Shown: positions 25,929 to 43,153 of the stretch, piece after piece | Numbering within the stretch: position 1 is the first letter of the stretch | Layout: each line of letters starts with the position of its first letter | Virus genome (UHGV): UHGV-0384003 | Direction: 5' to 3' (one strand) | Length of the DNA: 44,419 nt | DNA from: a virus | Made by a program: the position numbers and the translations under genes | Notes under the pieces: model-generated | The model's database searches: none | What the model saw: the letters and a program-made list of their open reading frames with translations, nothing else | Told to the model about the DNA's origin: nothing

Positions 25929-27343
25929 TGACATCAATCAGAACATATAAACAAGCTATAAGTTATCTGAAAAGTTTAGAGGGGAAAGCATGGAACCCTG
26001 ACAGAACCTACGGGGTGCAATGCTTTGATCTAGCTAATCAATATTGGTTGTATCTATTCGGTCATACTTTAAAAGGTGTAGGTGCTGCGGATATTCCGAC
26101 ATGGAACAATTTTACTGGTGAAGCTACTGTTTATGAAAATACACTATCATTCTTAGCTAAACCCGGAGATGTCGTAATATTCAATAGAAATTATGGTGGT
26201 GGTTATGGTCACGTTGGTATCGTCATCTCTGCTACCTCTAACTCTATAACGATACTTGAGCAAAACTGGTTGGGTGGCGCTTATTGGACACCACCCGAAG
26301 TAACTACGAGACGCACACATGGTTACGACTTCCCTATGTGGTTTATTAGACCTTTCTATGCTAAAGAAACGACTAAAAACAAACTTAAAAGCAAAGCTAA
26401 GCCAGTTAAGAAAGCGAAAGCTAAGAAAGGTAAGAAAATATTACTTGTAGCTGGACATGGTAAAGGTGCTTATTCAAATGATCCCGGTGCAGTGGCAAAT
26501 GGATATAATGAGCGTGACTTTAACAGAAAAGAAATTATCCCTAGAATCAAGAACTATCTTGAAAGTGTAGGCAATACGGTTATTTTATATGGTGGCAAAT
26601 CGATGAACCAAGACTTGTATCAAGATACGTTATATGGACAACGTGTAGGCAACTATTCAGATTATGGTTTGTATTGGGTTAAAAAGAACGTGAAACCTGA
26701 TGCGATTGTAGAATTCCACTTAGATGCTGCTAGTCCACAAGCAAGTGGCGGACATGTCATTGTAAGCGACAGATATCCGGCAGATGATATTGATAAGGCA
26801 TTATCTAGCGCTCTAGGTAAGACAGTTGGCAAAATTAGAGGTGTGACACCTAGAAATGATTTATTAAATGCCAACGTTACTGGACAACTTAATTTAAATT
26901 ATAGATTAATCGAATTAGGTTTCATAACAAGTAAAAAAGATATGGACTATATAACTAAGAACATCAACAGTTTTACTAAACGAATTGCAGAGGCTATCAA
27001 TGGTAGACAAATCAATGCGCCTAAGAGTAAGCCTTCCAGCAAAAAGACAACATGGAACTGGGGAGGCACTTTTTACCCTAACGCACCTAAAAGTGGTATT
27101 AGAGTTAGAAGGTCGCCGGGTATCAATGGTACTATTGTTGAAAGTGGCTCATGGTTATACGGAAAGACAGATTGGGTTGAATTCGACCAAGTTATTAAAA
27201 AAGATGGATATTGGTGGCTTCGCTTTAAATATCAAGCACCCGGTTCAAGCAAAAAAGATTTCTACTGCGCTGTTTGTAAAATTACAGATAAACAACAAAA
27301 AATAAAAAACGAGAAATATTGGGGTAAAATAGATTGGAAATGA
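25928..27343 (+). CDS. endolysin: CHAP + N-acetylmuramoyl-L-alanine amidase (amidase_3-like) + SH3b cell-wall-binding domain
   Basis: CHAP motifs ([10 protein letters not shown] ... GHVGIVI). Central amidase motifs ([17 protein letters not shown]). C-terminal SH3b ([23 protein letters not shown]). Canonical position after the holin. Confidence 0.9.
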
Positions 27344-27370
27344 TATAATTAAATTACCACGACATTACAC

Positions 27371-27401
27371 AAGGGTAGTCCTAGCGACTGCCCTCTTTTT
27401 T
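27371..27401 (+). terminator. rho-independent terminator of the lysis cassette
   Basis: AGGGTAGTC-ctagc-GACTGCCCT stem followed by a T8 run. Confidence 0.65.
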
Positions 27402-27402
27402 T

Positions 27403-27411
27403 ATGTTATAA
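27403..27411 (+). promoter_or_regulatory. extended -10 promoter element (TGtTATAAT), copy 1 of a duplicated CTCTTTTT(T)ATGTTATAAT motif
   Basis: TG at 27403-4, TATAAT at 27406-11. The same 20-nt motif recurs at 27473-27492. Confidence 0.45.
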
Positions 27412-27417
27412 TCAAAT

Positions 27418-27481
27418 AGAAATTGCGGTACACATCTAAGGAGTGTATCTGAGTATAACTGTTGCGACGGTTATCTCTTTT
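27418..27481 (+). ncRNA. putative short non-coding transcript 1 (~60 nt)
   Basis: Lies between promoter copy 1 and the T-run that precedes promoter copy 2. Contains GGAGTG but no usable start codon or ORF. Internal imperfect hairpins. Confidence 0.3.
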
Positions 27482-27483
27482 TA

Positions 27484-27492
27484 TGTTATAAT
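27484..27492 (+). promoter_or_regulatory. extended -10 promoter element (TGtTATAAT), copy 2
   Basis: TG at 27484-5, TATAAT at 27487-92. Confidence 0.45.
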
Positions 27493-27498
27493 ACATTT

Positions 27499-27641
27499 AC
27501 AAAGAGCCAAGCGCTCATCCTAAATTCTCGGTAGCCATTCCGATTTAGTGGAGGCCTTGCTTGCGTTTAGCAGTAAGTAACTGACCACTCATTTGATAGA
27601 CGTCTAGTAACCGTATCTTAATAGGTACGGTTATTTTTTTA
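27499..27641 (+). ncRNA. putative non-coding transcript 2 (~140 nt) ending at a strong intrinsic terminator
   Basis: No ATG-initiated ORF. Bounded by promoter copy 2 and the terminator TAACCGTA-tcttaatagg-TACGGTTA + T7 (27608-27641). Confidence 0.4.
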
Positions 27642-27673
27642 TGCGTAATTTTCGGAAAAACATATAAAAGCTA

Positions 27674-27702
27674 TTGCTTTTATATCTCATATGATATATA
27701 AT
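27674..27702 (+). promoter_or_regulatory. sigma-A-type promoter (-35 TTGCTT, 17-nt spacer, -10 TATAAT) for the micro-ORF transcript
   Basis: TTGCTT at 27674-79 and TATAAT at 27697-702, followed by RBS AAAGGAGGG at 27714-22. Confidence 0.5.
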
Positions 27703-27731
27703 TGTATTATAGTAAAGGAGGGACAAACGAA

Positions 27732-27842
27732 ATGAACCGAAGACGAAGAAATAAAAAAGAACGTCAACAAGAACTAACGATTTGGTTAATGGTAGCGAGC
27801 CTAATAATTCAAATCATAGCACTTATTAAAACGTTCTTCTAA
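27732..27842 (+). CDS. hydrophobic micro-protein (36 aa; basic N-terminus + one TM helix), type I toxin-like
   Basis: MNRRRRNKKERQQELTIWLMVASLIIQIIALIKTFF. Perfect RBS AAAGGAGGG 9 nt upstream. Own promoter. Absent from the ORF track (under 60 aa). Confidence 0.45.
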   Translation: MNRRRRNKKERQQELTIWLMVASLIIQIIALIKTFF

Positions 27843-27892
27843 ACAGGTTAGGGCGAAAGCCCTTAACCTCATTATATATGGAGGTGCATAAG

Positions 27893-27982
27893 ATGAAAAG
27901 TGAAAAACGAATTACAATTACATTTTATCTATCAATCGTTATTTTAATACTATCAATTATAAATTTAATCTTAACATTCTAA
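27893..27982 (+). CDS. hydrophobic micro-protein (29 aa; one TM helix), type I toxin-like
   Basis: MKSEKRITITFYLSIVILILSIINLILTF. RBS GGAGGTG 6 nt upstream. Preceded by a GAAA-tetraloop stem-loop (27846-27868). Confidence 0.45.
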   Translation: MKSEKRITITFYLSIVILILSIINLILTF

Positions 27983-28008
27983 ATTAATTCGGTTCATTTC
28001 TTAAATTT

Positions 28009-28596
28009 ATGAATAATCTAAGTGAGATAAAAAACACAATACAAAAGTTATTAGATGATAAATCAATATCAAATTACAGAATTCAAAAAGATACAGGTGT
28101 ATCGTATGGAAACATTAGTGAATTGAGAAACAAAAAAAGACAATTGAAGAACTTAACCTTGGAAACAGTCGAAAAACTATATAATTATCAAAAAGGGATA
28201 GAAAAAATGAACGAATTGAATAGCAAAATGATTGAAGATGTAGTATTAGGCGAAGTTGAATTAGTGGAAAGTTTAGGTCAATACTTTATCGATATTGAGG
28301 GAGATTACAAGTATAACGTAGAATTTGCCACACTTTCAGAAGTTGATTATAAAGTTTGTGCATTATATGAGGTTGCTACAAGCAAAACTTACGAAGTTCC
28401 TTATCACGATAAATTAGAAAAAGAAGATATGAAGTTATTTTATGATAAATGGTTAGAAAAAGATCAACAGGAAGAAACTTATATCGAGAGCGTATTCTTT
28501 GTAAATAAAGAAGATGCAGAAAGCTATATTAAAGATGTATTGAAAGGCAAAGAAAGTTTAACAGAAATTGCAGAACAAATTGGTTATTTCGAATAA
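28009..28596 (+). CDS. HTH (XRE-like) domain protein with uncharacterised C-terminal domain; attP-proximal moron
   Basis: 195 aa. N-terminal ~60 aa has an HTH_XRE-like pattern (ISNYRIQKDTGVSYGNISELRNKKR). C-terminal ~130 aa acidic domain with no motif recognised. Weak RBS at 28009; an alternative start is MNELNS at 28207. Followed by its own terminator. Confidence 0.5.
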   Translation: MNNLSEIKNTIQKLLDDKSISNYRIQKDTGVSYGNISELRNKKRQLKNLTLETVEKLYNYQKGIEKMNELNSKMIEDVVLGEVELVESLGQYFIDIEGDYKYNVEFATLSEVDYKVCALYEVATSKTYEVPYHDKLEKEDMKLFYDKWLEKDQQEETYIESVFFVNKEDAESYIKDVLKGKESLTEIAEQIGYFE

Positions 28597-28601
28597 AACA
28601 A

Positions 28602-28628
28602 AACCGGGATAAATTCCCGGTTATTTTT
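28602..28628 (+). terminator. rho-independent terminator
   Basis: AACCGGGA-taaat-TCCCGGTT stem followed by TTATTTTT. Confidence 0.65.
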
Positions 28629-28840
28629 GTGTCAAAAGTGTCAAGCATGTGTCAAAATAGTTCTATTTTATTCTGTTTTGTTCTAATGAAAATGCGCGAT
28701 AAATGCTATATCTAAGCCTATTTCATGCTTGTTCTAAAATTAAAATTATCCCGCCGTCTCCATACGACAAGCTTTATACAAAGGGTTTTCAAGCTAGCAA
28801 GTGTCAATAATGTGTCAAGAAAATAATTCTCTGACACGTT
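28629..28840. other. attP region: arm-type integrase-binding repeats (GTGTCAA) flanking a putative core
   Basis: Direct GTGTCAA copies at 28629, 28638, 28649, 28801 and 28812, plus an inverted partial copy at 28832-37. The central ~150 bp contains TCCCGCCGTCTCCA (28749-62), which resembles a tRNA/tmRNA 3' end. Adjacent to the int 3' end. Confidence 0.5.
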
Positions 28841-29864
28841 GACCTTGCTCTTTTTTATGTTCTTCTAGTAAATGTGAATAGGTTTCTAACGTAATAGAAA
28901 TTGACGCGTGACCTAGTCGTTTACTTATATATTCAATTGGCAAGCCTTTGGATAATAAATAAGATGTGTGCGTGTGTCTTAACGAATAAGGGGTTATATT
29001 ATCATTTTCTAAACCCACTTGTTTTTTAGTGTGATTAAACGATTTTTTTATAGCATTGTGACTTAATTTGAAAAGTTTACCGTCAATTCGTCGTGGTAAT
29101 TTAGTTAATTTTGAATTTATCAGTAGAACATCTTTAGTCGACACTTCAACATCTCTTTTACTATTCTTTGTTTTTGTTCCAGGTAAGTGAATGATACCTT
29201 CACTTTTGTTCAAATCTTTATACGTCATATTAATTAAATCGCTATATCTTGCACCAGTAATCGCTAGTAAGTATAAAAAAATATAGCTTTGTTCATCTCT
29301 ACTTTTAAAATAATCTAACATCGCTAAATAATGCGTGATACTCATATATTTGTATCGTTCATCTTTAGCTTTAACAGTACCGTTTATAGCTATGTTATAT
29401 GTTGGGTCTTTTTTGATATGACCGTCATACACTGCATCTTTTAAACACTGACTTAAACAACCATTTACTTTACGCACTGTTTCATCTGCGTGTCCTTCCC
29501 CAAACCTATTTAAAAATTTTTGATATTCTGATCGTGTAATGTTTTTGAGTAACATATTCTTGCCGAAGTATTCATTAAATAATCTTAAAGACCGCTCATA
29601 CCAATAATACTGCATAGGCGATACTTTCTTTTTATTCTTAATGATTAACCACTCGTTATAGTAATCTTCAAATTTTTTATTTTCTTCAAATTTGCTACCG
29701 TCTTCTAAATCTCGGATTAATCTTTGTGCTGCATTGATAGCCTCAGCTTTTGTTTTAAATCCAGATTTACGTTTTTTACCAGATTTAAAACTAGGGTGCT
29801 TTACATCATACTGCCAGCTTGTAGAGTTCTTATTTTTACGTTTTGTAATAGTAAATGACGCCAT
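28815..29864 (-). CDS. int: tyrosine site-specific integrase
   Basis: 349 aa. C-terminal catalytic signature (LRHTHTSYLLSKG ... R..GHASISITLETYSHL). N-terminal arm-binding-like domain. RBS AGGAGGAATG. Confidence 0.9.
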   Translation of the reverse strand: MASFTITKRKNKNSTSWQYDVKHPSFKSGKKRKSGFKTKAEAINAAQRLIRDLEDGSKFEENKKFEDYYNEWLIIKNKKKVSPMQYYWYERSLRLFNEYFGKNMLLKNITRSEYQKFLNRFGEGHADETVRKVNGCLSQCLKDAVYDGHIKKDPTYNIAINGTVKAKDERYKYMSITHYLAMLDYFKSRDEQSYIFLYLLAITGARYSDLINMTYKDLNKSEGIIHLPGTKTKNSKRDVEVSTKDVLLINSKLTKLPRRIDGKLFKLSHNAIKKSFNHTKKQVGLENDNITPYSLRHTHTSYLLSKGLPIEYISKRLGHASISITLETYSHLLEEHKKEQGQRVRELFS

Positions 29865-29881
29865 TTAAATCATTCCTCCTC

Positions 29882-29920
29882 AAAAAAAGTAAAAAAATAA
29901 TAAGGGTAGACGGACTACCC
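29882..29920 (-). terminator. rho-independent terminator of the lipoprotein gene (minus strand)
   Basis: Read on the minus strand: GGGTAGTCCGTCTACCC hairpin followed by TTATTATTTTTTTACTTTTTTT. Confidence 0.55.
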
Positions 29921-29925
29921 ATAAA

Positions 29926-30561
29926 TTATTGAGCTGGCGTATTTTGTACCTCTTGTTGTCTTTTAGCCCAACTGTCGTAACCTTCGTTTTTACCTACCCA
30001 GATCGGACCACCTACATGAGCGTTAGGGTCATCCCAAACTTGTGCGCTTGCTTTACGTGCCTCTTCATATTCCGCGCGTCCATATCCCATTTGTGACTCA
30101 TTATGTGTAGTTGGTTTGTTTTTATTCCATTCGTTAATTTCATCTTGCGTCATATAATTATTGTTATTTTGTGATTGTTGATTGCTACTTTGTTGTTGGT
30201 TATTGTTAGCTTGTTGGTTGCCAGTGTTTTGTTGCTGTTGTTGAGTAGCTTGCTTACCTTGTGGACGTTCGTTACCGTTATCACTTTGAGTTTTCTCATT
30301 ATCGTTTTTAGATGTGCTTTCAGATTCGTTGTTAGCAACATCGTTATTACTATCATCTGAACTAGCTTGTTGTTTATCATCATTAGTGTTTTTGTTCGAT
30401 TTATCTTTGTTTTCTAATTTTTTATCTTTCTTTGGATCATTAGACTTTTTGTCTGATTTACTTTCTGACTTTTTATTATCTTCCTTTTTCTCACTATCAT
30501 TGTTACCACATGCACCTAATACTAATAAACTTGCAAATATTAAAAATAAAACCTTTTTCAT
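29926..30561 (-). CDS. lipoprotein moron (signal peptide + lipobox LGAC, long N/Q/D/K-rich disordered linker, C-terminal globular domain)
   Basis: MKKVLFLIFASLLVLGACGNN. Extreme low-complexity middle (TQQQQQNTGNQQANNNQQQSSNQQSQNNNN). Own terminator. Sits between int and cI, co-oriented with both. Confidence 0.75.
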   Translation of the reverse strand: MKKVLFLIFASLLVLGACGNNDSEKKEDNKKSESKSDKKSNDPKKDKKLENKDKSNKNTNDDKQQASSDDSNNDVANNESESTSKNDNEKTQSDNGNERPQGKQATQQQQQNTGNQQANNNQQQSSNQQSQNNNNYMTQDEINEWNKNKPTTHNESQMGYGRAEYEEARKASAQVWDDPNAHVGGPIWVGKNEGYDSWAKRQQEVQNTPAQ

Positions 30562-30612
30562 TCTACATTTCTCCTTTAAATAAAATTATATTAAAGCGCC
30601 GAAAAGGCACTG

Positions 30613-30750
30613 TTAATCTTTATAAACATCTTTGTTTTCAGTCAATGGTATATCGTTTTGTACCATATATTCTAATTGTTCCATAGTATATACTGGGACT
30701 TTTATTAATTCGTCCCAGTGTTTTGGTTCTTGTTCATAAACTCCACTCAT
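30613..30750 (-). CDS. small acidic hypothetical protein (45 aa; absent from the ORF track)
   Basis: MSGVYEQEPKHWDELIKVPVYTMEQLEYMVQNDIPLTENKDVYKD. RBS AAAGGAG 7 nt upstream of ATG (complement of 30748-30750). Lies between the lipoprotein gene and cI. Confidence 0.4.
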   Translation of the reverse strand: MSGVYEQEPKHWDELIKVPVYTMEQLEYMVQNDIPLTENKDVYKD

Positions 30751-30766
30751 ACCCGATACTCCTTTA

Positions 30767-31405
30767 TTACTCAAAAATTTGATAGTTATAAATCACTTTA
30801 CCTATCACTTCAATTTCATCTGTATTGTCAATATCATATGTATTCGTTTTAAACTCATCTGAATAACTGATAGGGTCTAAATGTAATTTTGTTTCTGTTC
30901 GTCTCACTCGTTTTACAGTATATTCTCCACCTAAACGTAAAACTAAGATATCGTTATTATTCAATCTATAATCTTGGTTGCGTCTGTAATCATGTATAAT
31001 GATATATGAGCCGTTAGATAACACTTTGTTCATGCTATCCCCATTCACTTGCAAAGCAATACATTCTTTAGGGTTTCGACCATTAAAAGCAATATCAGGT
31101 ACTTCTAATTCTTTAGTATCAACTTCCACAGTTTCGAAATTACCAGCTGACACTTGACCATAGTATGGTACTTTGAATTGAGTGTTTATATTAGGCATTT
31201 CTACTTCTTCCACTTCACCTAACAAATAACTTTTTGAAACATTAAATAAACTAGAAATTTTTTCAACCATTCCCATTCTCGGCTCGTTTTTACCATTTTC
31301 CCACATTCGTATTGTTCCTTCTGAAACATCTAATTTTTTAGCCATTTCAACTTTTGATAATTTGTTTTTCAAACGCACTTCTTTTATCGAATTTTTAAAA
31401 GCCAT
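30767..31405 (-). CDS. CI-like repressor (N-terminal HTH_XRE + C-terminal S24 LexA-like autopeptidase)
   Basis: HTH (LSKVEMAKKLDVSEGTIRMWENGKNEP). S24 catalytic Ser in GDSM and Lys in VKRV. Probable start MAFKN at 31405 with RBS AGGAGGG. Confidence 0.85.
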   Translation of the reverse strand: MAFKNSIKEVRLKNKLSKVEMAKKLDVSEGTIRMWENGKNEPRMGMVEKISSLFNVSKSYLLGEVEEVEMPNINTQFKVPYYGQVSAGNFETVEVDTKELEVPDIAFNGRNPKECIALQVNGDSMNKVLSNGSYIIIHDYRRNQDYRLNNNDILVLRLGGEYTVKRVRRTETKLHLDPISYSDEFKTNTYDIDNTDEIEVIGKVIYNYQIFE

Positions 31406-42731: not shown

Positions 42732-43153
42732 TGTCAATTTTACCAATTAAATTATTATCAGAAAATGCAATCTTGCCAACGAGAGCAAATCCAACAGATA
42801 GTGGATTAGATTTATATGTCGCAGAAGATACAACAATTCCAGCACATAGTACAGTCGTAGTACCAACACACATTGCAATTGATTTAGCGTATGGATATGA
42901 GGCGCAAGTGAGACCACGTTCAGGTAATTCACTTAAAACTAAGTTACGTGTAGCGTTAGGTACAATCGATCACACTTATAACAAAGAAATTGGAATTATC
43001 ACAGACAATATCGGTGATGAGGCAATCGTAGTTAAAGCAGGTACACGTTTAGCACAATTAGTCATTGCGCCAGTAATGTTACCAGAGCCAACGGAGGTGC
43101 AAGAGTTTGACGAAGTATCGGAAAGAGGAGCATACGGAAGCACAGGAGAATAA
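42731..43153 (+). CDS. dut: dUTP diphosphatase (trimeric dUTPase)
   Basis: Conserved dUTPase motifs (PTRANPTDSGLDLY ... RPRSG ... C-terminal RGAYGSTG). 140 aa. Confidence 0.9.
   Translation: MSILPIKLLSENAILPTRANPTDSGLDLYVAEDTTIPAHSTVVVPTHIAIDLAYGYEAQVRPRSGNSLKTKLRVALGTIDHTYNKEIGIITDNIGDEAIVVKAGTRLAQLVIAPVMLPEPTEVQEFDEVSERGAYGSTGE

Follow-up and report, generated by a model that had tools for sequence, protein, structure and literature searches.

AcrIIA13 and AcrIIA13b are PAM-duplex mimics that block SauCas9 (PMC7104187, PMC13147308), and both inhibit this nuclease in human cells (PMC7104187); the family literature includes Watters et al. 2020 (PMC7104187), PMC10901769, and PMC12658196. AcrIIA13 of S. 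schleiferi consists of an N-terminal HTH, which binds inverted repeats in its promoter, and a C-terminal Cas9 inhibitor (PMC7104187). This is the same architecture as in the 195-aa protein analyzed here, although both domains belong to a different lineage. S. schleiferi AcrIIA13 lies second in its operon, behind a gene with reportedly widespread bacterial homologues, whereas two micro-ORFs lie upstream of the gene studied here. AcrIIA13b was first named by Watters et al. 2020, and its structure (8K4M) was reported by Lee & Park (FEBS J 2025; PMC13147308). It shares with our protein the fold, the contact residues, and the host species, S. haemolyticus. However, it was published as a "truncated homologue lacking the HTH", whereas here an HTH is encoded in frame directly upstream. 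Its contacts with the WED/PI region of Cas9 include E31 and E39, which are essential, as well as Q25, Q87, E89, and E94, and its first 15 residues are required for inhibition (PMC13147308).

Two further systems are related through the HTH. The N-terminal domain of AcrIIA15 (8JFR/8JFO/8JFU) is a dimeric repressor that acts on inverted repeats around its own -35 and -10 boxes; its residue K31 makes a base contact, and K31A abolishes DNA binding (PMC10901769). The C-terminal domain of AcrIIA15 is unrelated to the one described here. Aca11 of a Streptococcus prophage (9LX2; PMC12658196) is a stand-alone HTH of the same fold, with the NKKR motif and the Y/K/S contacts found in our protein, but it is encoded by a separate gene downstream of its acr, whereas here the HTH is fused N-terminally to the Acr. 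AcrIIA1 of Listeria phages (cited in PMC7104187 and PMC10901769) likewise joins an HTH autorepressor to a Cas9 inhibitor. The logic is the same as here, with anti-CRISPR and acr-promoter repressor in a single temperate-phage polypeptide that is needed in the prophage state. AcrIIA1 acts on Cas9 by a different mechanism, and no sequence relationship between it and our protein was detected.

The acr gene and its place in the phage genome

We analyzed a viral DNA stretch of 44,419 nucleotides (UHGV-0384003, hereafter the window), which is 95.6% identical to phage IME1318_01 over the stretch compared (27404-28762) and probably comes from a temperate S. haemolyticus phage. The gene occupies 28009-28596 on the + strand (ATG start, 195 aa plus stop). 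Homology and an AF2 model (pLDDT 93) divide the protein into an Aca-like HTH domain (codons 1-66, 28009-28206) with a pI of 9.6 and an anti-CRISPR domain (codons 67-195, 28207-28593) with a pI of 4.26 (32 D+E versus 13 K+R). An unnamed PHROG, phrog_1529, matches the whole 195-aa length (E 8e-53), and the 60 homologues of the protein are staphylococcal throughout. A scan of species-representative genomes yielded S. petrasii as the only true relative, besides a MAG match that was spurious. The gene is followed by the intrinsic terminator of the acr operon, a bidirectional hairpin at 28602-28628 on the + strand (stem 28602-28622, then a T-run); terminator-like sites in the region number six, against 0.7 expected.

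Next comes the attP region (28629-28818), in which the core at 28748-28762 is preceded by three GTGTCAA repeats (28629-28655) and followed by two (28801-28818). The attP-R core annotated in IME1318_01 (ATCCCGCCGTCTCCA) maps to this same position. Five of the seven GTGTCAA copies on the + strand of the window (nine on both strands) flank the core, and these repeats are probably arm sites. The acr gene thus ends up ~150 bp from the core, with the integrase on the - strand at 28815-29864, and its homologues always lie directly after the lysin, at the prophage end. The gene is carried by a mobile element of a host lineage with type II-A CRISPR-Cas, an active system having been reported in S. haemolyticus (PMC7104187). 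An earlier note, made from the letters of the window, had described a 195-aa ORF with an XRE-type HTH (here matched by Pfam HTH_26 and, over its full length, phrog_1529) and its own terminator, adjoining attP as attR-proximal cargo unrelated to lysis or integration. All of this holds, the attP position being borne out by identity to the IME1318_01 core and the cargo being an accessory anti-CRISPR. The note was also right that the C-terminal domain is acidic, but not that it is uncharacterized.

This domain was identified through a PDB sequence search (phmmer); it has no match in Pfam, NCBIfam, or PADLOC, and in PHROGs it is covered only by the unnamed phrog_1529. Residues 67-195 match 8K4M ("Anti CRISPR protein", AcrIIA13b of S. 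haemolyticus) with an E-value of 3e-75 and 121 of 129 positions identical, and 7ENI_C (AcrIIA13 bound to SauCas9) with an E-value of 4e-28 and ~44% identity. The structure prediction that the note had proposed for an unknown domain led to the same known proteins: Foldseek with the AF2 model gave 8K4M (TM 0.90 on the target) and 7ENI_C (TM 0.90) as best matches, followed by the AcrIIA15 N-terminal domain and Aca11. In the model, strands at 83-99, 101-114, 117-131, and 157-164 and helices at 138-154, 167-177, and 184-191 form the AcrIIA13 fold, a four-stranded beta-sheet with an acidic surface plus three helices. All six AcrIIA13b contact residues, Q25, E31, E39, Q87, E89, and E94, are conserved (Q91, E97, E105, Q153, E155, and E160 here), and 14 of the 15 N-terminal residues needed for inhibition are identical. 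The eight substitutions relative to 8K4M include E35K (K101 here) on the acidic face. Inhibition of SauCas9 has been demonstrated for AcrIIA13b, the 94%-identical protein (PMC13147308). By analogy with the work on this near-identical protein, the C-terminal domain would stop Cas9 from recognizing its target DNA, and the infecting phage, later the prophage, would be shielded from CRISPR targeting.

We put the probability at about 90% that the locus encodes a bifunctional AcrIIA13-family anti-CRISPR that corresponds to the published AcrIIA13b at full length; the anti-CRISPR identity of the 195-aa gene is itself already known. The closest phage orthologue, ARM67820.1 of IME1318_01 (94.9% identical), appears as "Staphylococcus phage AcrIIA13" in an alignment legend of PMC13147308, where the accession is printed with an extra digit. 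WP_261007165, given for AcrIIA13b in that paper, is a 55-aa entry in the collection we searched. In the TXTL screen of PMC7104187, S. haemolyticus genome fragments were without Acr activity; they came from another strain, and the presence of this gene on them is not stated. The S. schleiferi fragment GF8, which carries AcrIIA13a, was likewise inactive in that screen, but the isolated gene inhibited Cas9 (PMC7104187). Native acr expression can therefore be low or repressed. Proteins of the phrog_1529 type, labelled "hypothetical" or "XRE family regulator" in the genomes of phages and Staphylococcus, can now be named AcrIIA13-family anti-CRISPRs with an Aca-like domain. Phages with such a protein can be expected to evade type II-A CRISPR immunity, a point of interest for phage therapy and for tools based on SauCas9.

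The Aca-like domain and a candidate promoter and operator

Pfam HTH_26 (Cro/C1 type) matches residues 11-57 (E 1.3e-6), and in the PDB sequence search residues 7-68 match the AcrIIA15 N-terminal domain (8JFR/8JFO, E 4e-10) and Aca11 (9LX2, E 1e-5). Identity to the AcrIIA15 domain is 41% over 61 positions, or 48-50% over 58-61 Foldseek columns, with an rmsd of ~0.8-1.1 A. The Aca11 contacts Y18, K22, S32, K38, and R39 correspond to Y23, K27, S37, K43, and R44, and an A7 tract (28132-28138, + strand) falls in codons N41-K42-K43-R44, the "KKR" DNA-contact motif of Aca11. The AcrIIA15 backbone contacts K37 and T43 are kept (R44 and T50), whereas S25/Q26 are S32/Y33 here and the base-contact residue K31 is E38; because of this last exchange, operator specificity must differ from that of AcrIIA15 and is a prediction here. 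A small HTH next to attP could also be an excisionase, a candidate that we rejected in view of the Cro/C1-type HTH with Aca homologues, the operator in its own promoter, and the Acr C-terminus. The P0060/L052-type proteins, in which this HTH is joined to another C-terminal domain, were ruled out as AcrIIA13, AcrIIA14, or AcrIIA15, since the PDB search matched their HTH only.

A candidate promoter of the acr operon, read from the sequence, lies at 27674-27702 on the + strand, downstream of a terminator at 27606-27635. It comprises a -35 box TTGCTT (27674-27679), a 17-nt spacer, and a -10 box TATAAT (27697-27702), and relatives share this layout and spacing. A consensus promoter scan yielded no more sites than shuffled sequences and was not relied on; it missed this promoter because the weak -35 box matches at three of six positions. 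A palindromic candidate operator with half-sites TATATCTCAT and ATGATATATA (27681-27700, one mismatch) lies between the two boxes and overlaps the -10 box. With up to 3 mismatches allowed, no other copy occurs in the 44-kb window, and the number expected is 0. As here, the Aca11 operator is a long palindrome filling a 17-nt spacer, where it overlaps -35 and -10 (PMC12658196). PhiSepi-HH1 (L018), with the same HTH type, has a perfect 10+10 palindrome at the operator position. Where the recognition helix differs, the palindrome at this position differs too: TACTTAAA..TTTAAGTA and ATACTTA..TAAGTAT in P0014-type loci, which have two inverted repeats, CTATGC..GCATAG in S. petrasii, ATCACGATT with AATCGTGAT in 2638A, and TAAACAttTGTTTA in phi11. 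A second inverted repeat, at 27662-27685, has no mismatch in the window, but the close relatives IME1318_01 and L002 have a degenerate version of it; AcrIIA15 has two inverted repeats, IR1 upstream of -35 and IR2 between -35 and -10, whereas our locus has one convincing palindrome, which is IR2-like.

Residues 1-66 would dimerize on the palindrome within the TTGCTT-17-TATAAT promoter and, once the protein suffices, switch off the whole operon (micro-ORF1, micro-ORF2, and acr). The sole plausible promoter, together with the operator, precedes micro-ORF1, so repression by the HTH probably extends over both micro-ORFs and its own gene as a single operon.

The leader upstream of the acr gene

Micro-ORF1 (27732-27842, + strand; 36 aa, MNRRRRNKKERQQELTIWLMVASLIIQIIALIKTFF) has a strong SD (GGAGG, 27717-27721) and encodes a basic N-terminus with one TM helix; the peptide, with its motif LIIQI, is conserved in L007, L018, L019, L030, L036, and L039. 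Micro-ORF2 (27893-27982, + strand; 29 aa, MKSEKRITITFYLSIVILILSIINLILTF) has its own SD, GGAGGT, and is conserved in the same loci and in L057. In the S. aureus P0045 loci, gene callers join micro-ORF2 in frame to the HTH gene. Both peptides have one TM helix, and neither micro-ORF belongs to a Pfam, PHROG, or PADLOC family. The possibility that the micro-ORFs correspond to GF5 gene 1, from which Watters et al. started their guilt-by-association search, was considered, but the fit is poor, gene 1 having been reported as widespread in bacteria.

The start codon of micro-ORF1 is covered by the 5' arm of a long-distance helix (GAAAUGAACCGAA, 27729-27741, + strand), whose 3' arm (UUCGGUUCAUUUC, 27988-28000, + strand) ends 8 nt before the acr ATG (28009), a start without an SD. 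The arms are complementary at 13 of 13 positions, and the helix is present in the MFE structure (p = 1.0), with a duplex energy of -19.5 kcal/mol compared with a mean of -9.2 (minimum -18.4) for shuffled sequences. Pairing is alike in 14 loci despite different arm sequences, with spans of 120-260 nt, and in all 14 a gap of 5-10 nt separates the 3' arm from the start of an SD-less ORF (acr/HTH in class A loci, micro-ORF2 in class B loci). From this comparison, the leader appears to organize acr translation, which would begin at an SD-less ATG just past the 3' arm while the 5' arm pairs over the micro-ORF1 start.

Between the micro-ORFs lies a GC-rich hairpin without a proper U-tract (27845-27869, + strand), shared by every class A and class B locus. 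A candidate antisense promoter-like site (TTTTCA-17-TATAAT, 27871-27899, - strand; 10/12 match in the consensus scan) abuts this hairpin with its -10 box and overlaps the micro-ORF2 start with its -35 box. It is conserved in 8/8 class A lineages as TTGTCA or TTTTCA, a 17/18-nt spacer, and TATAAT. No - strand terminator-like site was found within the micro-ORF region, the two detected being at 28622-28602 and 28771-28750. The Rfam search over 27000-31000 returned only a spurious sub-threshold mir-5 hit and no known RNA family on the leader or the sRNA-like units.

Type I toxin mRNAs (hok/sok, txpA/ratA, bsrG/SR4) show a 5'-3' fold-back over the start codon and 3'-overlapping antisense RNAs, hallmarks that the long-distance helix and the conserved antisense site (TTGTCA-17-TATAAT in 8/8 lineages) would fit. 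The locus might thus be mainly a type I TA-like module of micro-ORF1 and/or micro-ORF2 plus an antisense RNA, driven by an HTH-controlled promoter, with the Acr as exchangeable cargo and a helix that silences the toxin rather than acr. In favor of this possibility, S. aureus phages and the neighborhood of glnA commonly carry HTH-only genes that come with these micro-ORFs, the hairpin, the helix, and the antisense site but have no Acr (HTH-only P0045 is found on 710 contigs), and at least two other C-terminal domains (that of AcrIIA15 and the P0060/L052 type) occur joined to the same HTH. Against it, neither peptide matches a known toxin family, and a pure toxin-silencing helix does not predict a 3' arm placed 5-10 nt before an SD-less ORF in 14/14 loci. 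We consider this alternative possible but rather unlikely; it does not conflict with the 195-aa protein being an Acr.

A candidate internal start at Met67 and a possible nested reading of the locus

Within the gene, an SD-like AAAGGGA precedes the ATG of Met67 (28207-28209) by a 9-nt gap (28192-28209, + strand), a candidate start that would add a 129-aa Acr-only product. Across 12 loci with ~40-95% amino-acid identity, the motif persists as AAGGGG or AAGGAG; the codon used for it is a rare one, either GGG (5% of Gly codons) or GAG (20% of Glu codons). As a control, a comparable motif occurs at 2 of 161 internal in-frame ATGs in the other genes of the phage. The P0060/L052-type proteins are without an internal SD. 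On this comparative evidence, an Acr-only protein is probably made from Met67.

This product is identical in extent to the 129-aa "truncated AcrIIA13b" of the literature, and RefSeq gives a 129-aa annotation in many S. haemolyticus genomes. Among five contigs so annotated, two are intact upstream, one has a frameshift, one an assembly gap, and one belongs to a decayed lineage. In L002 and L021, an in-frame HTH immediately precedes the annotated start; in the cases checked, the truncation is a RefSeq start-site call on intact 195-aa ORFs. If confirmed, the HTH-less AcrIIA13b would be the C-terminal two-thirds of an intact 195-aa ORF. The reading of its N-terminus as a "dimerisation strand" would then be affected, because the first residues of this segment (67-73) belong to a long helix (51-73) in the full-length AF2 model. 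If the frame yields two products, the structurally studied protein would not be a gene in its own right but an isoform that occurs naturally, or else a product of annotation.

A stricter version, in which only the 129-aa product is made and the upstream 66 codons are untranslated or a decaying HTH remnant, could draw on the SD before Met67 and the lack of one before the first ATG, on the RefSeq annotation, and on genuine disruptions: L004 has A8 instead of A7, which shifts the HTH frame and leaves only the 129-aa internal ORF, and in L022-24 a stop and a frameshift disrupt the HTH. However, no stop interrupts the 66 codons, and purifying selection acts on them, the differences in the first codons among the window, L002, and L021 being mostly synonymous (cta/tta, agt/agc, gag/gaa). 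The HTH is kept down to 41% identity with a confident fold, the operator covaries with the recognition helix, and full-length S. schleiferi AcrIIA13 and AcrIIA15 bind promoter DNA (PMC7104187, PMC10901769). We therefore regard a 129-aa product alone as improbable.

Beyond the bifunctional anti-CRISPR itself, a broader reading, to which we tentatively give somewhat less than even odds, is that the locus is a nested, multi-layer expression device rather than a plain fusion gene, with two products from one frame, helix-gated full-length translation, and a toxin-like leader. In the first layer, the SD-less start would yield scarce full-length Aca-Acr, and Met67 would yield abundant 129-aa Acr. In the second, the helix would pair the micro-ORF1 start with the stretch at the SD position, allowing the sharing of one SD or a translational relay. 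In the third, the leader would at the same time act as a type I toxin-like cassette, equipped with a conserved antisense promoter. What a fusion gains over separate acr and aca genes is a question that Watters et al. left open (PMC7104187) and that the two products, if real, would answer; a conserved internal ribosome-binding site could uncouple the dose of the inhibitor from that of the repressor, and the conserved micro-ORF leader with its long-distance helix would bring acr under additional control at the level of translation. HTH-only genes of many S. aureus phages share the cassette, which could therefore serve staphylococcal siphoviruses generally as a platform for anti-defence expression at the junction of lysin and attP. 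The SD-less acr behind a micro-ORF leader with a covarying helix, the conserved candidate start at Met67, and the recognition of the 129-aa form as a start-site call look undescribed.

The idea favored in the earlier note, of defence, abortive-infection, or lysogenic-conversion cargo expressed from the prophage, with the HTH as sensor or regulator and the acidic domain as effector or sensor guarding the lysogen, had in its favor the lysin-attP position typical of morons, the own terminator, and the toxin-like membrane micro-ORFs with a conserved antisense promoter-like site upstream, but it is very improbable, given that the acidic domain is 94% identical to a crystallized and biochemically validated Cas9 inhibitor (PMC13147308), that neither the 195-aa protein nor either micro-ORF has a match among the PADLOC models at E ≤ 1, and that expression would weaken the CRISPR immunity of the lysogen. 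With an AcrIIA13b-type C-terminal domain and an Aca-like HTH with an operator, the acr gene is counter-defence rather than defence cargo; expressed in a lysogen, it would lower, not raise, Cas9 immunity to superinfecting phages. The suggestion that the gene and the micro-ORFs form one regulatory or defence unit survives in its regulatory half, a link being probable through the shared promoter, and fails in its defence half. The check proposed in the note, whether homologues always co-occur with the micro-ORFs, came out negative: in L012-14 and L047-53, an identical C-terminal domain follows a different HTH and promoter, without the micro-ORFs.

An AcrIIA13-family anti-CRISPR gene between lysin and attP

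The acr ORF (28009-28596, + strand) begins with ATG and encodes 195 aa. Residues 1-66 form a basic part (pI 9.6) with a Pfam HTH_26 match of the Cro/C1 type at residues 11-57 (E 1.3e-6), and the C-terminal two-thirds are strongly acidic (pI 4.26, 32 D+E vs. 13 K+R). A terminator hairpin with a T-run lies 3' of the stop codon (28602-28622); six terminator-like sites were found in the region vs. 0.7 expected from shuffles. The ORF, HTH, acidic domain and terminator described in the earlier note were thus confirmed, as was the position between lysin and attP. The window is a temperate staphylococcal phage in circularly permuted form; its lysin-attP stretch (27404-28762) is 95.6% identical to Staphylococcus haemolyticus phage IME1318_01, whose annotated attP-R core corresponds to 28748-28762. 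Flanking this core, at 28629-28655 and 28801-28818, are five of the seven + strand copies of GTGTCAA in the window (nine counting both strands); the integrase gene occupies 28815-29864 (- strand). Between integrase and the cI-like repressor, a predicted lipoprotein of 211 aa is encoded at 29926-30561 (- strand; phrog_11835, function unknown). It has a signal peptide with a lipobox-like LGAC motif followed by a long low-complexity N/Q/S/K-rich region, and might be expressed from the prophage as a surface or superinfection-exclusion protein.

The C-terminal domain (residues 67-195, hereafter Acr domain) matched nothing in Pfam, NCBIfam or PADLOC, and the only PHROGs match of the product was the unnamed family phrog_1529. 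A PDB sequence search with a profile of 24 homologues matched this domain to 8K4M ('Anti CRISPR protein', AcrIIA13b of S. haemolyticus, E 3e-75) and to 7ENI chain C (S. schleiferi AcrIIA13 with SauCas9, E 4e-28). For residues 7-68, the matches were the AcrIIA15 N-terminal domain (8JFR/8JFO, E 4e-10) and Aca11 (9LX2, E 1e-5), a stand-alone anti-CRISPR-associated protein. From the family alignment, AlphaFold2 produced a confident model (pLDDT 93, pTM 0.81), which gave significant Foldseek matches in the PDB to these same structures only, with target-normalised TM-scores of 0.90 to both 8K4M and 7ENI_C and rmsd values of ~0.8-1.1 A for the HTH superposed on the AcrIIA15 N-terminal domain and Aca11. 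The supposedly uncharacterised domain is therefore neither unknown in sequence, 121 of its 129 residues being identical to crystallised AcrIIA13b, nor in fold. The Cas9-contact residues (E97, E105, Q91, Q153, E155 and E160 in the acr product) are retained, and the 15 N-terminal residues on which inhibition depends are identical at 14 positions (roles from PMC13147308).

AcrIIA13, AcrIIA14 and AcrIIA15 have in common an N-terminal HTH, by which each binds inverted repeats in its own promoter, and Cas9 inhibition resides in their divergent C-termini (Watters et al., PMC7104187, which discovered the family). The closest phage orthologue, ARM67820.1 of IME1318_01 (94.9% identical), is listed as 'Staphylococcus phage AcrIIA13' in an alignment legend of PMC13147308, and the exact window protein is already in public collections as 'hypothetical protein'. 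In the legend of Fig. 5 of that paper, the AcrIIA13b accession WP_261007165 leads, in the protein collection, to an entry of 55 aa, and 'ARM678220.1' is one digit too long; both are probably typographical errors.

Sequence, fold, contact residues, mobile-element context and host lineage all agree with the AcrIIA13 family, and the acr product is an AcrIIA13-family anti-CRISPR, i.e., a known family and essentially a known protein. The Cas9-inhibition mechanism, shown for a 94%-identical protein and for AcrIIA13, would be expected to hold for the window allele. The earlier suggestion of defence cargo was right about accessory cargo tied to micro-ORFs but wrong in direction, as the function is counter-defence. 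Since this identity is already known, the remaining interest lies in the expression architecture (internal start, covarying long-distance helix and annotation origin of 'AcrIIA13b') and in a toxin-like leader common to acr and HTH-only genes (homologues without the Acr domain) of S. aureus phages. No description of the internal start, the helix, the shared leader or the annotation origin was found in the literature searched.

Promoter palindrome and micro-ORF leader

Downstream of a terminator at 27606-27635, the candidate promoter of the acr operon consists of TTGCTT (-35, 27674-27679), a 17-nt spacer and TATAAT (-10, 27697-27702). Aca genes are defined by an inverted repeat in their own promoter; the candidate operator here, a palindrome with the halves TATATCTCAT and ATGATATATA, takes up the spacer and extends into the -10 box (27681-27700), and is the sole match in the 44-kb window at ≤3 mismatches (0 expected). 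The same promoter geometry is found in the Aca11 operator (PMC12658196) and AcrIIA15 IR2 (PMC10901769). The comparison between loci is more telling. Relatives sharing the recognition helix (…SYGxISELR…) also share the palindrome, as a perfect 10+10 repeat in PhiSepi-HH1, and those with other recognition helices have other palindromes at the equivalent promoter position: TACTTAAA…TTTAAGTA upstream of TTGACA plus ATACTTA…TAAGTAT between -35 and -10 (type of homologue P0014), CTATGC…GCATAG (S. petrasii), ATCACGATT and AATCGTGAT (phage 2638A) and TAAACAttTGTTTA (phage phi11). This change fits the substitution of the AcrIIA15 base-contact residue K31 by E38 in the acr product, with backbone-contact and 'KKR' residues retained. 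Domain homology and a promoter-embedded palindrome place the HTH in the Aca-like class. Given the unique palindrome, its covariation with the recognition helix and the contact residues, autorepression of the acr operon by the HTH domain through the predicted operator is well supported in silico.

Upstream of this promoter, two copies of a module of terminator hairpin, T-run and extended -10 (TATGTTATAAT) occur 80 nt apart (27372-27412 and 27464-27492), and the terminator at 27606-27635 (region 27606-27649) is a third one. IME1318_01 has one extra copy, and the modules have no Rfam match. Together, the modules and this terminator look like two small stand-alone transcription units (~65 and ~150 nt) between lysin and the acr operon.

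The acr-operon promoter drives the leader first rather than acr directly. Micro-ORF1 (27732-27842, 36 aa) has a strong Shine-Dalgarno sequence (SD), a basic N-terminus and one TM helix; a GC-rich hairpin (27845-27869) separates it from micro-ORF2 (27893-27982, 29 aa, own SD), and the acr ATG follows 26 nt later without an SD. Two loci with Acr only ~50% identical (L007 and L039) have the same arrangement and recognisably homologous peptides, and the same leader precedes HTH-only genes of S. epidermidis and S. aureus phages and of a chromosomal islet beside glnA. The micro-ORFs differ in a second leader class, B (DS12, PMBT9, S. petrasii, 2638A and others); in the first three of these loci, the micro-ORF2 stop overlaps the acr ATG or lies within a few nt of it. 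Co-occurrence with the micro-ORF cluster, which the earlier note proposed to check, is not obligatory: locus L048 and the P0014 group have an Acr domain identical to that of the window (129/129) with a different HTH and promoter and zero micro-ORFs, and locus L008 has another gene in their place. Therefore, it is the HTH/promoter module that the leader travels with, rather than the Acr domain.

A 13-nt perfect inverted repeat joins the start of micro-ORF1 to that of acr: the 5' arm (27729-27741) contains the micro-ORF1 start codon and the 3' arm (27988-28000) ends 8 nt before the acr ATG. In a duplex-energy scan of 10 loci, the start region of micro-ORF1 had its best partner immediately upstream of the SD-less downstream start in all except phi11 (9/10), and whole-leader folding placed the helix in the MFE structure with a pair probability of at least 0.94 in 8/8 independent loci. 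Among 14 loci from phage, genome and IMG/VR collections, the arms occur in at least 10 different sequence forms, all still complementary; in every one AUG1 is covered by the 5' arm, and 5-10 nt separate the end of the 3' arm from the start codon of a cistron lacking an SD of its own (class A, acr/HTH; class B, micro-ORF2). Such covariation argues for a real RNA structure. The distances from SD1 to helix and from helix to AUG sum to 6-15 nt, and hairpin-bridged split ribosome-binding sites are known from T4 genes 38 and 25. We favour a role as translational relay or shared-SD switch, which would couple production of the full-length protein to the leader. The rival reading, a fold-back in the style of type I toxins with no role beyond silencing micro-ORF1, draws on an antisense promoter-like site (27871-27899, - strand; TTGTCA or TTTTCA, 17/18-nt spacer, TATAAT) conserved in 8/8 class A lineages, with equivalents in L007, L018, L019, L030, L036, L039 and L057. 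The -35 of this site overlaps the micro-ORF2 start codon and the -10 borders on the GC-rich hairpin, where it would start an RNA antisense to the 3' end of micro-ORF1, the layout of type I toxin-antitoxin pairs. However, neither the micro-ORFs nor the leader match any known toxin or RNA family.

A probable internal start and the 'truncated' AcrIIA13b

AcrIIA13b has been treated as a natural homologue without HTH (PMC7104187, PMC13147308). Most instances of the 129-aa form in the protein collection are RefSeq (WP_) calls; in the same species, annotations by submitters give 195 aa and 'XRE family regulator'. We checked five contigs with a 129-aa or shorter call. L002 and L021 have an intact in-frame 195-aa ORF, with mostly synonymous differences from the window in the HTH codons. 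L004 (a Logan assembly) has a true frameshift of the HTH, A8 (~2927-2934) instead of the A7 tract at 28132-28138, which encodes the conserved N-K-K-R DNA-contact motif; its internal Acr-only ORF is intact, and the promoter and 5' end of micro-ORF1 are lost. The eighth A could mark the tract as a switch prone to slippage, or be an error of assembly. The call in L003 is interrupted by an assembly gap, and L022-24 form one genuinely decayed lineage. In L003 (GCA_001229605.1, 2505-2930), a copy of the 3' part of acr lies beside an integrase fragment and just upstream of the psm-beta cluster of an S. haemolyticus chromosome, with an N-gap at the junction. It looks like a prophage remnant retaining the Acr domain.

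Gene callers pick Met67 because an SD-like AAAGGGA lies 9 nt upstream of it and none precedes the first ATG. The motif is conserved: in 12 loci (~40-95% protein identity), the codons before Met67 are AAG GGG or AAG GAG (GAG AGA in S. petrasii), GGG being a rare Gly codon of the phage (5%) and GAG its minor Glu codon (20%). A comparable motif occurs at only 2 of 161 internal in-frame ATGs of its other large genes, and is absent from L052, where the same HTH precedes a different C-terminal domain. Two products of acr are therefore likely, if unproven: a full-length repressor-inhibitor and a 129-aa protein with the Acr domain only. In the full-length model, residues 67-73 lie within a long helix (51-73), whereas the crystallised fragment has them at the beginning of its 'N-terminal dimerisation strand'.

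HTH-only homologues and probable module shuffling

HTH-only homologues of the N-terminal domain (62-73 aa) are encoded after the lysin in many phages of S. aureus, S. epidermidis and S. pseudintermedius (L015, i.e., phi11 42935-43123, where the gene is unannotated; L018, L019, L020 and L030-L046) and occur on the S. aureus chromosome beside glnA (L009-L011). One form, P0045 (710 contigs), lies in a chromosomal islet; the three places read adjoin glnA. Most of these loci have the same micro-ORF leader and helix without the Acr domain. Some carry a small downstream ORF that could be a candidate anti-defence gene, e.g., gp48_31 of vB_SepS_48 (65 aa).

P0060 (145 aa) and L052 1501-1923 (140 aa) combine the same Aca-like HTH with a different acidic C-terminal domain of ~75 aa, which has no relative in the PDB and is a candidate anti-CRISPR or anti-defence domain, as yet uncharacterised. 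The HTH of L048 (IMG/VR 2671180654_000002) is 47% identical to that of the window, of another specificity type and behind a different promoter; relative to 28009-28596, the junction falls in the conserved LYNYQK..EKMNEL linker, which suggests recent module shuffling at the domain boundary.
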